Source of the DNA: an uncultured delta proteobacterium
GTDB taxonomy: Bacteria > Desulfobacterota > Desulfobaccia > Desulfobaccales > 0-14-0-80-60-11
Direction of reading: 5' to 3'
NCBI GenBank assembly: GCA_963841475.1
Contig: CAWJCT010000001.1
Span: forward strand, 613,052-677,051
Length of the DNA stretch: 64,000 bases
Part shown: positions 2,943-62,158 of the stretch, piece by piece
Layout: every line of letters starts with the position of its first letter
Numbering within the stretch: the stretch's first letter is position 1
Translations under genes and position numbers: made by a program
The notes under the pieces: generated by a model
What the model saw: the letters and a program-made list of their open reading frames with translations, nothing else
Told to the model about the DNA's origin: nothing
Databases searched by the model: none

Positions 2943-3227
2943 TCAGCTCATGATGTCCCAATTCAGCTTAAAGGTATTGTCATAGAGGGTATATTCAAAC
3001 CCCATCATTTTGCCTACCCCGGGCCGTTCTCCCGGTTCGACCCGCCAATACATCAGATAAATGGCGGGAATCATGCGGGGATCGCCAGTCTTGGGGTCAG
3101 GTTCGATGTTGGCCCAAATCTCCTTCTTCTCCATGACCCGCCAGACCGTGCCATGCTTTTTGCTGCGCACTTCCTGCCCTACCTCGGGCAGGCCCTTTTC
3201 CCGGATGATCTTATCAAAATCCTTCAT
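2943..3227 (-). CDS. Small conserved hypothetical protein, homologous to the C-terminal tail domain of the adjacent antiporter
   Basis: 94-aa ORF with an AGGAGG RBS. Residues LPEVGQEVRSKKHGTVWRVMEKKEIWA...YWRV...GKMMGFEYTLYDNTFKLNWDIM align with residues ~410-488 of ORF 3791-5263. Confidence 0.6.
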   Translation of the reverse strand: MKDFDKIIREKGLPEVGQEVRSKKHGTVWRVMEKKEIWANIEPDPKTGDPRMIPAIYLMYWRVEPGERPGVGKMMGFEYTLYDNTFKLNWDIMS

Positions 3228-3525
3228 GGCCGCCTCCTTTTGAGGTGATGGGTGATATTCTAAAAATAAGATTTTTATTCAGTATTTCAAGTAAAGATAT
3301 AAAGATTAACAGCCTGACCAATTTTAATAAAGAAATAGTGCTTCTTACCCGGCTCAGGACTCGCCTTCGGTGTCCGGGTGGGGCGTCGATCCATATCGCC
3401 CTATTCCCCCTGAGGGGCCGGGGAGCGGCGCTATCGGGACCCCCGGGAGCTCGGCCAAGGCCAGGAGCGGCGGGAGGTGTGTCTCATGGCCCAGACCGTA
3501 ATCTGGCACCCCGGTCATATTGCGC

Positions 3526-3554
3526 TTGACTATTGCACCCCTCCGGTTCAAAAT
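3526..3554 (+). promoter_or_regulatory. Sigma70-like promoter for the riboswitch leader
   Basis: TTGACT (3526-3531), 17-nt spacer, CAAAAT (3549-3554). The predicted start falls a few nt before the P1 hairpin at 3568. Confidence 0.4.
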
Positions 3555-3567
3555 AATCAGGAGAACT

Positions 3568-3742
3568 GGCGATGGAGCTCGCCTGGGAAATTTTTCATAC
3601 TGAGGAGCAATCCAAAAGTTTTTGATGGCCGCCGCAGGCCTTAGCCGGTTGCCGGATTTTTGATTGCGAGTCGGTATCACGGCCCGAACCGCGCTGGCGC
3701 TGATGGCTCCTGATTACCCCATGGGGTTCAGGGGCTTTTTTT
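3568..3742 (+). promoter_or_regulatory. Fluoride riboswitch (crcB motif)-like leader with a ~100-nt inserted helical domain and terminator expression platform
   Basis: P1 hairpin GGCGAUGGAGCUCGCC (3568-3583). 3' half GAACC-GCGCUGGCGC-UGAUGGCUCCU (3686-3711). Pseudoknot GGAGCU (3574-3579) pairs with GGCUCC (3705-3710). A terminator stem starting at 3706 overlaps the pseudoknot strand. Both halves closely resemble the crcB-motif sequences I recall from Bacillus cereus and Thermotoga petrophila. Confidence 0.6.
3706..3742 (+). terminator. Intrinsic terminator (riboswitch expression platform)
   Basis: GCUCCUGA-UU-ACCC / GGGU-UCAGGGGC stem (about 12 bp, 2-nt bulge) followed by T7 at 3736-3742, 49 nt upstream of the antiporter ATG. 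Confidence 0.65.
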
Positions 3743-3790
3743 GTTGGCCGGGTCAAGGTTGCCCCTTTACCCCTGCTGGAGGAGACCCTT

Positions 3791-5263
3791 ATGGCGATCA
3801 GCCTGGCCTTGATCATCATCCTGGGTTTGGGTGCTGACTACCTCTTCCGCCGCCTGAAAATGCCGGGCCTGGTGGGCATGCTTTTGGTGGGCATCCTGGT
3901 GGGGCCCTATGTTCTTGGCCTGCTGCGCCCGGAAATGATCGCAGTCTCGGCGGATTTTCGCAAAATCGCCCTCATCGTTATCCTGCTCCGGGCCGGCTTC
4001 ACCCTGCGCCGGGAGACCCTGAACCGCACCGCCCGCCCGGCCCTGCTCATGAGCTTCGTCCCCGCCTCTTTCGAGATCGCCGCCGTGAGTGTGGCGGCCG
4101 TGTACCTGTTCAACTTCTCATGGCTCCAGGCCGCCATGCTGGGAGCCATTATCGGCGCCGTCTCCCCCGCGGTGGTGGTGCCCATGATGATTTACTTCAT
4201 GGAGCAGGGCAAAGGGGCGCAAAAGGGGATCCCCACCTTCGTCCTGGCCGGCTCCGCCCTGGACAATGTCTTTGCCATCGTCATCTTTACCCAGTTTTTG
4301 AGTCTCTACCAGGGGGTCAAGAGCAGCATCCTCTGGGACCTGGCCAGTATCCCGGTCGCCGTGGTCCTGGGGACCCTCCTGGGGCTGGTGGCCGGCTACC
4401 TCCTCTACCTGTTTTTCAGCCGCTATGAACTGGCCAGTCCCCGGCGCACCATCATGGTGTTGGGGGTGGCCATCGTTCTCACCTGGATCGGCGACCTGGC
4501 CAAGGACCTGGTCCCCATCGCCTCCCTGCTGGGGGTCCTGACCATGGGCCTGGTCATCCTGGAGAAGGCCGATAGCCTGGGGCATATCATTGCCCAGAAA
4601 CTCCAGCGCCTCTGGGTCTTTGCCGAACTCCTGCTCTTCGTGCTGGTGGGGGCCCAGGTGAACCCCAAGGTGGCCTGGGGCGCCGGGGCCGCCGGCCTGG
4701 CAATCATCGGCTTCGGCCTTATCTTCCGGTCTCTGGGCACCTACCTGTCCGTTCTGGGGGCCGGGCTCACCTGGCGGGAAAAGCTCTTTTGCATCATGAG
4801 CTATATCCCCAAGGCCACCGTCCAGGCGGCCATCGGCGCCATTCCCCTGGAGGCCGGGGTCCCCGGCGGCGAACTTATCCTGGCCATGGCGGTGCTCTCG
4901 GTCTTGATCACCGCCCCACCCGGGGCCGTCGCCATCTCCCTGTGGGGCGAAAAAGTCCTGGACAAGGAAGAACTCAGCGGCTACCGCTTTTTCACCCTGA
5001 GGGACAGGTTGAAACTGCCCCGGGTGGGCCAGCGGATCCGCCACAAGCGCTCCGGCGCCGTGTGGAAGGTTATCGAGGAGATGGAAATCTGGGCCGAGAA
5101 GCCCGCCGGGGCCGGCGCCACCACAGAGCAAGTCCCGGGTCTGGCCCTCCGGTTCTGGAAGGTCGACGACCACCTGCCCCGGGGCAAGGGGAAAACCCTG
5201 CGCCACACCTACACCCCCGGCGACCATACTTTTGAGCGCTATTGGGAGGTCCTGGAAGGGTGA
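3791..5263 (+). CDS. Cation:proton antiporter (Na+/H+ exchanger family) with a soluble C-terminal domain of unknown function
   Basis: 490 aa. About 390 aa are polytopic hydrophobic sequence typical of CPA-type exchangers, followed by a hydrophilic ~90-aa tail. GGAGGAG RBS before the ATG. Confidence 0.75.
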   Translation: MAISLALIIILGLGADYLFRRLKMPGLVGMLLVGILVGPYVLGLLRPEMIAVSADFRKIALIVILLRAGFTLRRETLNRTARPALLMSFVPASFEIAAVSVAAVYLFNFSWLQAAMLGAIIGAVSPAVVVPMMIYFMEQGKGAQKGIPTFVLAGSALDNVFAIVIFTQFLSLYQGVKSSILWDLASIPVAVVLGTLLGLVAGYLLYLFFSRYELASPRRTIMVLGVAIVLTWIGDLAKDLVPIASLLGVLTMGLVILEKADSLGHIIAQKLQRLWVFAELLLFVLVGAQVNPKVAWGAGAAGLAIIGFGLIFRSLGTYLSVLGAGLTWREKLFCIMSYIPKATVQAAIGAIPLEAGVPGGELILAMAVLSVLITAPPGAVAISLWGEKVLDKEELSGYRFFTLRDRLKLPRVGQRIRHKRSGAVWKVIEEMEIWAEKPAGAGATTEQVPGLALRFWKVDDHLPRGKGKTLRHTYTPGDHTFERYWEVLEG

Positions 5264-6423
5264 AATCCGCCGCCTGGAAGTTCATCATCCTGCTGGGGGT
5301 CATCAGCCTCTTCAGCGACATCACTTATGAAGGAGCCCGGAGTATCAGCGGCCCCTTCCTCGGTGAACTCAAGGCCAGCGCCCTGGTGGTGGGGGTGGTG
5401 GCGGGCCTGGGGGAGTTTCTGGGGTACACGCTGCGCCTGGCGTCCGGCTACCTTGCCGATCGTCTGGGCCGTTACTGGCCCATAGTCTTTGCCGGCTATA
5501 GTTTGAACCTTCTGGCAGTGCCGCTCCTGGCCCTGGCCGGCAGTTGGGAAATTGCCGCGGTGCTCCTGGTGGCCGAACGGATGGGCAAGGCTATCCGCAC
5601 CCCGGCCCGGGACGCCATGCTGTCTCACGCTGTGAGCGCGGTGGGGCGGGGCTGGGGCTTCGGCTTCCACGAGGCCATGGACCAGATTGGCGCAGTCACC
5701 GGGCCGCTCATCGTGGCCGCAGTCTTATATTTCCATGGAGGTTACCGGCAGGGGTTTGCCGTTCTCTTGATCCCGGCCGTCCTGGCGCTGGTGGTGATTA
5801 CCCTGGCGGCGCGTCTCTATCCCCACCCCCAGCACCTGGAGGTGAACGCCCCGGGTCTCAACCCCACCGGGTTCAACCGCCCTTACTGGCTCTATGTCGT
5901 GGCCGTGGGATTGATGGGAGCCGGCTATGCCGACTTCCCCCTGATCGCCTATCACTTCGGCCAGACGAGCCTGGCCCCTCCCGGCTGGATCCCCCTGTTT
6001 TATGCCGTCGCCATGGCGGTGGACGGTGTGGCCGCCCTCATCCTGGGCCGCCTCTTTGACCGACTGGGGCTTCGGGTAATCATGGGGACCGCGGTCCTGT
6101 CGGCTCTGTTTGCGCCCCTGGTCTTCCTGGGAGGTTTTAAGCTCGCCCTGTTGGGCATGGTCCTCTGGGGCATCGGCATGGGGAGCCTGGAGTCCATTAT
6201 CAAGGCCGCCCTGGCCGAGATGGTGCCCCGCCACCGCCGGGCCACCGGTTTCGGCCTCTTTAATTGCGGCTTCGGCCTGTTCTGGCTCCTGGGCAGCGTC
6301 CTCATGGGGTGGCTCTATGATTATTCCCTGGGCGCCCTGGTGACCTTTTCGGTAACCGCCCAACTCCTGGCTATCCCCTTTTTTCTGGCGGTCTCGAGGC
6401 GAGTGTGCTTCCAACCCCGATGA
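5242..6423 (+). CDS. MFS transporter
   Basis: 393 aa with about 12 hydrophobic segments and MFS motif A-like GYLADRLGRYWP. It overlaps the antiporter stop, so it is probably in the same operon. Start uncertain (TTG 5242 or GTG 5260). Confidence 0.7.
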   Translation: MGGPGRVKSAAWKFIILLGVISLFSDITYEGARSISGPFLGELKASALVVGVVAGLGEFLGYTLRLASGYLADRLGRYWPIVFAGYSLNLLAVPLLALAGSWEIAAVLLVAERMGKAIRTPARDAMLSHAVSAVGRGWGFGFHEAMDQIGAVTGPLIVAAVLYFHGGYRQGFAVLLIPAVLALVVITLAARLYPHPQHLEVNAPGLNPTGFNRPYWLYVVAVGLMGAGYADFPLIAYHFGQTSLAPPGWIPLFYAVAMAVDGVAALILGRLFDRLGLRVIMGTAVLSALFAPLVFLGGFKLALLGMVLWGIGMGSLESIIKAALAEMVPRHRRATGFGLFNCGFGLFWLLGSVLMGWLYDYSLGALVTFSVTAQLLAIPFFLAVSRRVCFQPR

Positions 6424-6731
6424 CCGAACGTGTCAGGCAACCGCTGAGGAGGCTGACTGGACAATAAGTCGTCAAGACCGTCCAACCTCTGTCGATAGCA
6501 AATGAGATGATCGCAAAACATAGCAAATGAATTGTCCGTTTTTACGGATTTCGGAGACTATCGCCAGGAGGCGGGCGATGAAGGTAGTGGAAGTCATTTT
6601 GTAGGCCGCGGCCAGGGAGATCAAATGGATTCAGGCGGCGTGCTATTGACGGTTTTCCGCATAAGACCTTGCCCGGCCGCTGTTTCTGTGATAGAGGATT
6701 GGAAAAGCCACGCGCCGGGGGAGGATTAATC

Positions 6732-7143
6732 ATGGCTGGGCTCAACAAGGTTATTCTGGTGGGGAATCTGGGGGCCGATCCGGAGATGCGCTATACCGCC
6801 AGCGGCACTGCGGTAGCCAAGTTCTCCCTGGCCACCAGCCGGAAATTCACCGGGAAAGATGGTCAGAAACAGGAAAAGACCGAGTGGCACCGCATCGTGG
6901 CCTGGGGCAAAGCTGGCGGAGATCTGCGGCCAATACCTCTCCAAGGGCAAGCAGGTAATGATCGAGGGCCGGATCGATTACGGGTCCTACGAAAAGGACG
7001 GCGTCAAGCACTATACCACCGACATCGTCGCCGAAAATATGCAGATGCTGGGCGGCCCCGGCGGCCGCGGCCGGGACCAGGAGCCGGAACCGCCTTTTGG
7101 ACCGCCCCAAGGCGGTGCGCCGGACGATGATATCCCCTTTTAG
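6732..7143 (+). pseudogene. ssb: Single-stranded DNA-binding protein, one frameshift at an A-run
   Basis: [22 protein letters not shown]...[10 protein letters not shown] continues in the other frame as [21 protein letters not shown]...DDDIPF (canonical SSB tail). The shift lies at ggcAAAgctgg, about 6908. Confidence 0.85.
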
Positions 7144-7203
7144 GGAGCCGCCGCCATTGCCTCTCCCCCTGAACCCCTGACGGCCAGAGGAGACAACCCG
7201 GTT

Positions 7204-7845
7204 TTGCCGAACAAACGGGTCAATTGCGGGAGAAGATCGTCCCGCTGCTCCAGGCACGGGGATTTCCCCGGCCTGACGAACCTGGCTGGCCAGGAATCAG
7301 GGGTGGCCGCCATCCTGATGCAATTCCTCTACGACCCGGGCGCCCTCCTCTATTGGCGGGCCCTGGAAGGGCTGGGGCAGGTGGCCGGCTCCCATCCGGA
7401 GCAGGTGCAGAAACTTATCAGCCGGCTCCTCTACCTGCTCAACGAGGATTCGGGCAGCAACGGCTGGGGCGCGGCCGCGGCCCTGGGGGAGATCGGGCGC
7501 AACCAGATCTCCCTGGTAAAAGAAATCATCCCCATGTTCGTCGGCATCCTGGAGGAACCCTTCTCCCGGGAGCCGATGCTTTGGGGGGTGGGCCGGTTAG
7601 CGGAAGTGCATGGGGAACTTCTTCATGAAGTTTTGCCCGTTATTGTGCCTTTTCTCACAAGCCCTGAACCCCAGGTTCGGGCTCTGGCCGCCTGGGGACT
7701 GGGCCGTGCCCGGTATCGGCCGGCCGCTGGCGCCATCCAGGCCTTGACCGGGGACCAGCACCCGGTGGAACTTTACGAGCGCGGGCATCTGGTTGAGTCC
7801 ACCGTGGGCCACATCGCGGATGAGGCCCTGGCGGGCCTGAACTGA
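7204..7845 (+). CDS. HEAT-repeat protein (DVU0298-like family)
   Basis: Repeated helical HEAT-like units (ALEGLGQV, AAAALGEIG, PQVRALAAWGLGRA). The N-terminus is possibly shifted, since ORF 7224 shares the region. Confidence 0.5.
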   Translation: MPNKRVNCGRRSSRCSRHGDFPGLTNLAGQESGVAAILMQFLYDPGALLYWRALEGLGQVAGSHPEQVQKLISRLLYLLNEDSGSNGWGAAAALGEIGRNQISLVKEIIPMFVGILEEPFSREPMLWGVGRLAEVHGELLHEVLPVIVPFLTSPEPQVRALAAWGLGRARYRPAAGAIQALTGDQHPVELYERGHLVESTVGHIADEALAGLN

Positions 7846-62082: not shown

Positions 62083-62158
62083 GCGGGCATAGCTCAGCTG
62101 GTAGAGTACAAGCTTCCCAAGCTTGGTGTCGCGGGTTCGAATCCCGTTGCCCGCTCCA
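62083..62158 (+). tRNA. tRNA-Gly (anticodon CCC)
   Basis: GCGGGCA/TGCCCGC acceptor stem, AGCTCAGCTGGTAGAGT D-arm, anticodon loop TTCCCAA, GGTTCGAATCC T-arm, encoded CCA. Confidence 0.95.

Follow-up and report, generated by a model that had tools for sequence, protein, structure and literature searches.

A predicted fluoride riboswitch with a 102-nt inserted segment in the leader of an antiporter–MFS operon of an uncultured Desulfobaccales bacterium

The leader of an operon encoding a cation/proton antiporter and a major facilitator superfamily (MFS) transporter, located at positions 3526–3790 of a 64,000-nt stretch of an uncultured Desulfobaccales genome (contig CAWJCT010000001.1; hereafter the window), is very probably a transcriptional ON-type fluoride riboswitch (crcB motif, Rfam family RF01734), with its aptamer divided by an insert that we consider a tolerated, overgrown peripheral hairpin. 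In a permissive scan, the Rfam Fluoride model matches 3559–3719 over model positions 1–64, i.e. end to end, with an E-value of 3.3e-6 on the 600 nt from 3300 to 3900 and of 3.6e-4 when the whole window is compared with all 4227 Rfam families, a comparison in which it is the sole sub-threshold match. The score of 29.5 bits lies below the curated gathering score of 34; apart from this score, every sequence and structure feature that defines RF01734 is present in the leader. A fluoride riboswitch had been proposed here from the sequence by an earlier reader (the original prediction), who named a covariance-model search, also with the insert removed, as a check. The match proved significant even with the insert in place, and all positions and sequence features described at the time were found again in the sequence. 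The leader is a size variant of a well-known riboswitch class and otherwise an ordinary member of it.

Aptamer core and expression platform

All 99 surplus bases of the match are placed by the cmscan alignment in a single insertion after model position 26, in the short unconserved stretch that leads from the 3′ strand of P1 to the conserved AACC linker, and beyond the insertion 3686–3711 aligns to model positions 27–57 with a posterior probability of about 1. Of the 16 bases of P1 (GGCGATGGAGCTCGCC), 15 follow the Rfam consensus GGcGAUGGaGUUCgCC, including the conserved GAUGG loop segment, and P1 is identical across all 11 leaders with a large insert that are described below. In the same leaders, only the first base of the linker varies (A in L001). 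The changes seen in the second aptamer hairpin of relatives are one-sided and preserve its pairs. The pseudoknot foreseen in the original prediction, GGAGCU with GGCUCC, is confirmed: it comprises five Watson–Crick pairs and one U-G pair, and its sixth pair shows a compensatory change among relatives, in which it occurs as C-G, U-A or U-G. With E-values of up to 10 allowed, the cation riboswitches nhaA-I and DUF1646 gave no match in 3300–3900, a range that covers both leader and insert.

The 5′ arm of an intrinsic terminator overlaps the 3′ strand of the pseudoknot (3705–3710). Its hairpin (3705–3736) has a predicted stability of -19.4 kcal/mol (z = -3.4; 0 of 200 shuffled sequences as stable) and is conserved in the consensus fold of the 11 leaders. 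The terminator was not found by a simple terminator scan, which we attribute to a UU bulge within its stem. The block formed by TTGACT and the -10 element of the sigma-70-like promoter is conserved in L001, L002, L003, L008, L014, L032 and L033, and promoters of the TTGAC type are likewise found directly upstream in the small-insert relatives. The ON-switch layout named in the original prediction is thus present, and it is conserved; it consists of a promoter, a terminator sharing the pseudoknot strand, a ribosome-binding site (RBS) and the two transporter genes. A further pairing, 3554–3563 with 3707–3716 (10 of 10 positions complementary), was rejected as a regulatory element, as the -10 region of the promoter forms its 5′ arm, most of which precedes the presumed transcription start. 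The coordinates of all elements are compiled in Table 1.

Table 1. Elements of the leader and the operon, in window coordinates
Element	Position	Strand	Sequence, basis or remark
Sigma-70-like promoter	3526-3554	+	TTGACT 3526-3531, 17-nt spacer, CAAAAT 3549-3554 (promoter scan)
P1 hairpin	3568-3583	+	GGCGATGGAGCTCGCC = GGCG-AUGGAGCU-CGCC; RF01734 model positions 10-25
Pseudoknot 5′ strand	3574-3579	+	GGAGCU; loop bases of P1
Inserted rod	3585-3685	+	preceded by the single spacer base U3584; placed after model position 26
Rod closing helix	3585-87/3683-85	+	GGG/CCC; minimum free energy fold of insert alone, RNAalifold
Rod helix	3597-3603/3671-77	+	AUACUGA/UCGGUAU; minimum free energy fold of insert alone, RNAalifold
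Rod helix	3607-12/3662-67	+	GCAAUC/GAUUGC; minimum free energy fold of insert alone, RNAalifold
Linker	3686-3690	+	GAACC; Rfam consensus uuAACC; model alignment
Second aptamer hairpin	3691-3700	+	GCG-CUGG-CGC (GCGCTGGCGC in DNA); called P2 or P3 in the literature
UGAUG and pseudoknot 3′ strand	3701-3711	+	UGAUGGCUCCU (TGATGGCTCCT in DNA); model alignment
Pseudoknot 3′ strand	3705-3710	+	GGCUCC; pairs with 3574-3579
Intrinsic terminator	3705-3742	+	stem 3705-3713/3728-3736, inner stem 3716-3719/3724-3727, U7 3736-3742
Ribosome-binding site	3778-3784	+	GGAGGAG; 6 nt before ATG 3791 (sequence)
Cation/proton antiporter, Na_H_Exchanger, NhaP-type, 490 aa	3791-5263	+	Pfam PF00999, E = 1.6e-45
MFS transporter	5260-6423	+	Pfam PF07690, E = 7e-30; likely start GTG 5260

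In this riboswitch class, fluoride is bound as a Mg2+–F- cluster. For the leader described here, we propose a hypothetical course of events in which (i) transcription would begin near 3560, about 8 nt upstream of P1, and P1 would fold first; (ii) the 102-nt segment 3584–3685 would fold locally into a rod closed by GGG/CCC, so that the end of P1 comes to adjoin the AACC linker; (iii) the second hairpin and then the UGAUG-GGCUCC tail would follow; (iv) in the presence of fluoride and Mg2+, the tail would pair with the P1 loop to give a stabilised pseudoknot, which would withhold the 5′ arm of the terminator and let the polymerase read into the antiporter gene and the coupled MFS gene; and (v) without fluoride, the terminator would form instead. 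Since the insert follows the last base of the P1 3′ strand, it would emerge where P1 is open, at a distance from the loop and from the ligand site at the pseudoknot. According to this scenario, the insert would be an overgrown form of the peripheral hairpin common to the antiporter-associated fluoride riboswitches of the clade, its base being held closed and its length held at about 100 nt by selection while the apex drifts.

The inserted segment in orthologous leaders

For comparison, 42 loci were fetched. The antiporter has thousands of homologues, mostly from Desulfobaccales-like and Thermodesulfobacteriota metagenome-assembled genomes. A large insert of 101–103 nt is present in 11 distinct leaders (the window, L001, L002, L003, L006, L008, L014, L030, L032, L033 and L034), whose antiporters are, where measured, about 89–97% identical to that of the window at the amino acid level. 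These leaders score 25.3–29.7 bits with RF01734, and L030 gave no match at E ≤ 0.01. At the identical insertion site, a second group with 68–85% antiporter identity (L005, L019, L021, L022, L025, L027, L029 and L039, and also L042) has a short hairpin of 17–23 nt with a stem of 4–7 bp and a loop of 5–10 nt. In L019 (85% identity), for example, the hairpin has 6 bp (GGGCGG-GUUAU-CCGCCC). As in the window, GGG opens the stem in eight of these leaders and is closed by CCC, or by UCC in L021; L042 has a different stem at the site (GGAA/UUCC). With 38.4–43.1 bits, L005, L019, L021, L022, L025 and L029 pass the gathering score, whereas L027 (32.9 bits) and L039 (29.8 bits) stay below it. The short-hairpin leaders may be regarded as natural equivalents of a deletion of the insert, and the comparison of the two groups (38–43 versus 25–30 bits) attributes the sub-threshold score of the window to the length penalty of the insertion, about 82 extra nt costing about 12 bits.

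A short hairpin between P1 and the linker is the rule in this clade. Because the large insert was seen only in close relatives and L019 has the 6-bp hairpin, we conclude that an existing stem was enlarged once, and recently. The Firmicute leader L015 reaches 49.1 bits even though 16 nt are inserted after the corresponding model position, so that the site tolerates insertions in the family at large. Among distant antiporter homologues, inspection of the leader sequence did not reveal the riboswitch in L040 and L041 (65% and 62% identity), and L038 (69% identity) contains only a degenerate P1-like segment, with no Rfam match.

The three helices of the rod (Table 1) appear both in the minimum free energy (MFE) fold of the insert alone and in the RNAalifold consensus of the 11 long-insert leaders (alignment A1), which returns the rod together with two small apical hairpins. 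The fold of the apex (3613–3661) is ambiguous, with hairpins at 3627-30/3637-40 and 3645-47/3653-55 in the consensus as opposed to one continuous rod in the single-sequence fold. Of the closed rod with two capping hairpins that had been drawn for the window, the rod helices therefore stand, and the apical hairpins belong to the consensus fold only.

Covariation was evident in the eight short-hairpin leaders (alignment A2). When P1, the pseudoknot, the extra hairpin and the second hairpin are taken together, 98% of the cells are paired, compared with 36–52% when the partners are slid against each other. Five pairs are changed on both sides (one in P1, one in the pseudoknot and three in the extra hairpin), a number reached by 16 of 500 shuffles, and the covariation score was reached by none of the 500. 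The P1 pair covaries between C-G, U-A and U-G, and in the extra hairpin C-G is replaced by U-A in three sequences, among other changes. Pseudoknot pairs are kept to 100% in both alignments. Homologous leaders had been named as a test of covariation for P1 and the pseudoknot, and they bear the original prediction out, with C-G to U-A in P1 and the change of the sixth pseudoknot pair. The pattern shows the extra short hairpin to be a real, covarying peripheral stem with free loop sequence. Within alignment A1, the pair-preserving changes are one-sided only, e.g. A-U to G-U, C-G to U-G and U-G to C-G.

Selection on the leader and competing explanations

Mean pairwise identities within the long-insert set amount to 100% for P1, 97% for the 3′ aptamer core and 95% for the remainder of the terminator 3′ of the core, compared with about 86% at the four-fold synonymous sites of the antiporter gene and 77% in the spacer between terminator and ATG. 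The insert as a whole (85.5%) divides into a basal part with 91% and an apical part with 79% identity. Such values point to strong purifying selection on both halves of the aptamer and therefore disfavour the idea that the insertion has turned the riboswitch into a dead relic, with the operon regulated in another way or constitutively terminated or read through. The sub-threshold Rfam score, the competing global folds of the leader and the failure to detect L030 at E ≤ 0.01 would fit such a relic, but a relic should lose its sequence as fast as the neighbouring spacer does, and in 11 lineages the pseudoknot complementarity and the terminator exceed the synonymous sites in conservation, as P1 and the 3′ core do. 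In the long-insert set, the sixth pseudoknot pair switches only between U-G and U-A. We consider a relic highly improbable.

The more serious competitor, although still unlikely in our view, is a functional add-on, in which the insert would either delay or pause folding co-transcriptionally and thereby tune the timing of the pseudoknot, or offer a place where a protein or another ligand could bind and act as a second input. The length of the insert is in favour of this, as it varies by only ±1 nt among the 11 leaders while the nearby 48-nt spacer between terminator and ATG has indels of 6–9 nt. The basal helices also exceed the synonymous sites in identity, and only 3 of 32 paired columns of the rod core are variable as opposed to 36 of 71 other columns of the insert (Fisher p = 5e-5). 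In other riboswitches, spacer length tunes sensitivity, although this was described for the expression platform and not for the site considered here (PMC11754884). Simple closure of a tolerated stem, however, would equally require a conserved base, and the apical half changes at or above the synonymous rate. A conserved loop motif is seen in neither the small nor the large version of the insert, and no Rfam family matches within 3584–3685, even at E ≤ 10, which also led us to reject a second riboswitch nested in the insert. The features of the window that look regulatory are not conserved in relatives. At 3598–3612, GAGGAGC could act as a decoy by pairing with the pseudoknot strand, but relatives have GAAGTGC, GAGTTGC, GAGTGGC and others; a leader peptide of 12 codons from ATG 3625 has no Shine–Dalgarno sequence, and the alignment reads as a lost start in L003 and a changed frame in L002; and the U-run that would make an internal terminator or pause of the hairpin 3645–3655 (U5) is not conserved. 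If the rod were nevertheless an accessory domain under selection, be it a co-transcriptional timer or a scaffold to which a protein or another ligand binds, the leader would be the first case of a fluoride switch that carries a further level of control within itself.

As with the relic, we consider it highly improbable that the segment of about 100 nt originated as a mobile or repeated element (MITE- or REP-like) that inserted into the riboswitch and has independent copies in other places. What prompts the idea is a 27-nt stretch, TTTTGATTGCGAATCGGTATGACGGCC, which agrees with the insert's 3′ arm at 25 of 27 positions and occurs in an unrelated intergenic region (L031, 1235–1261, minus strand; L035, 481–507, plus strand). 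The two occurrences represent one sequence from two samples, upstream of a 94-aa open reading frame (ORF) that is not homologous to the 94-aa ORF of the window. The likeness is limited to the 27 nt, the locus folds differently, and about 0.5 chance matches are expected according to a rough estimate with 21 specified bases, so that the match is probably due to chance or a stray fragment. The other five of seven matches in a metagenome scan with an insert-only 23-mer are antiporter leaders, and neither the window nor any of the fetched loci contains a second copy. Terminal repeats or a target duplication were not seen, and the GGG...CCC base is common to the short hairpin of the relatives.

We therefore favour a fluoride riboswitch with a tolerated peripheral hairpin, in which the base of the rod would have to stay closed and the apex would evolve roughly neutrally. 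Several observations weigh against this interpretation. The default Rfam scan of the window does not report Fluoride, as the score is below the gathering score. Folded alone, the insert shows no gain in stability over shuffled sequence (z = -1.1), and the global MFE fold of the whole leader favours other pairings (z near 0 to -0.7) and lacks the rod. P1, the rod and the terminator are found together only in the centroid structure; from these models, misfolding of the leader is conceivable. That a separation of the pseudoknot strands by 100 nt is compatible with ligand-dependent switching is likewise an assumption of the folding model. No rod pair shows a compensatory double change in the 11 leaders of alignment A1, which we ascribe to the high similarity of the sequences, and the rod is supported by complementarity and by conservation in a shallow clade. 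Furthermore, the argument for neutrality uses four-fold sites, which are themselves not strictly neutral, and the assemblies of L008 and L014 appear to be frameshifted, with a frame-wise amino acid identity of about 0.4.

Operon context and comparison with known fluoride riboswitches

The RBS is conserved in 11 of 11 leaders, and the rest of the spacer varies and has indels. Homologues of the antiporter are annotated as NhaP-type Na+/H+ or K+/H+ antiporters. The reading frame of the MFS gene is open from TTG 5242, and its likely start, GTG 5260, overlaps the stop codon of the antiporter gene (GTGA), which suggests that the pair is translationally coupled; the identical pairing of antiporter and MFS genes is found in L025, L029, L030, L038 and L042. 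The original prediction regarded antiporters as a minor class downstream of crcB RNAs. This is contradicted by the relevant passage of a review citing Baker et al. 2012, which names Na+/H+ antiporters as the next most common riboswitch-associated class after fluoride exporters (PMC11139923), and by that ranking the association found here is typical rather than minor. By analogy, the biology is expected to be ordinary: fluoride would induce the antiporter operon.

Several features of the surrounding sequence were noted in addition. The 3′ arm of the terminator (3723–3735, GGGGTTCAGGGGC) is 85% complementary to 3761–3773 (GCCCCTTTACCCC) just before the RBS, and most relatives keep the GCCCC block that precedes the RBS; the pairing could represent a structure near the RBS after read-through. 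In L027 (3028–3100), L039 (2805–2877) and L009 (1707–1770), a second, canonical fluoride riboswitch (47.6, 42.4 and 57.0 bits, respectively) lies directly downstream of the riboswitch-controlled antiporter gene and before the next gene, giving two successive fluoride switches. L012, an unrelated locus, has the only nhaA-I (Li+/Na+) riboswitch match that was seen (3392–3445, 46.8 bits), downstream of an antiporter homologue with its own upstream fluoride riboswitch. Divergent from the riboswitch promoter, the window encodes the 94-aa ORF mentioned above (2943–3227, minus strand), which is conserved at the same position with 78% identity in L019 and 71% in L022 and has no Pfam or NCBIfam match. 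Between this gene and the promoter lies a GC-rich stretch (3330–3520) with no credible RNA-family match (sX7 at 15.8 bits is noise), and the segment 3228–3530 is only 70–80% conserved in the closest relatives. Two tRNA genes directly follow the MFS gene in L001 (5241–5402), L002, L003 and L034. The window has no tRNA genes after the MFS gene (6300–7300) and an ORF with an SSB domain (6669–7130) instead, so that synteny breaks just downstream of the operon. In L002, a group II intron match (D1-D4-2; 49.3 bits against a gathering score of 36) is found at 125–237 on the minus strand, some 2 kb before the riboswitch, and a tRNA gene (68 bits) is located at 62083–62155 on the plus strand of the window.

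Standard annotation of these Thermodesulfobacteriota genomes will miss riboswitches of the clade, as the long insertion alone lowers the score; they would be detected with a clade-aware model or with a gentler insertion penalty at model position 26/27. Between P1 and AACC, anything from 0 to about 100 nt is accepted, which is useful for engineering, e.g. for grafting reporters or second aptamers onto a very small sensor. With pseudoknot strands that are naturally about 125 nt apart, the leader also provides a ready test case for studies of co-transcriptional folding.

A crystal structure of the Thermotoga petrophila fluoride riboswitch was reportedly described by Ren et al. in 2012. Compared with this riboswitch and that of Bacillus cereus crcB, the leader is alike in its P1 with the GAUGG loop, the AACC linker, the second hairpin and the CUGAUG-xxCUCCU tail. 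It also shares the 6-bp pseudoknot between P1 loop and tail, the terminator that uses the 3′ strand of this pseudoknot (ON switch), the short 5′ leader after a sigma-70 promoter and the cation/proton antiporter downstream. In contrast to the canonical riboswitches, a 102-nt rod stands between the P1 3′ strand and the linker, and the span is 161 nt instead of about 60–80. Our literature searches found no description of an inserted-domain or three-way-junction variant of the fluoride riboswitch. Hertz et al. 2025 cite the RF01734 entry MGTH01000159.1/17659-17500, with 161 nt, as an 'extremely long aptamer' and treat it as a length outlier only (PMC12667848). Its span of 160–161 nt indicates that at least one long member is already present, unanalysed, in Rfam, and it resembles the window (161 nt) as well as L002 and L034 (160 nt) in family and span, a comparison made by length only. 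The original prediction knew of no such insertion in the class, a view superseded by this entry, the 16-nt insertion of L015 and the short hairpins common in the clade.

The short-hairpin orthologues are the closest counterparts of the leader, with the same gene, core sequence and insertion site; they differ in their insert of 17–23 nt and its covarying stem, and most score above the threshold. Peripheral elements of variable length also occur in other riboswitches, such as the linker between the sub-domains of the ZTP (pfl) riboswitch and the P3 extension of the TPP riboswitch. The leader resembles these in combining a conserved ligand core with one site that is free in length and takes up optional hairpins, and it differs from them in that the insert outweighs the aptamer.

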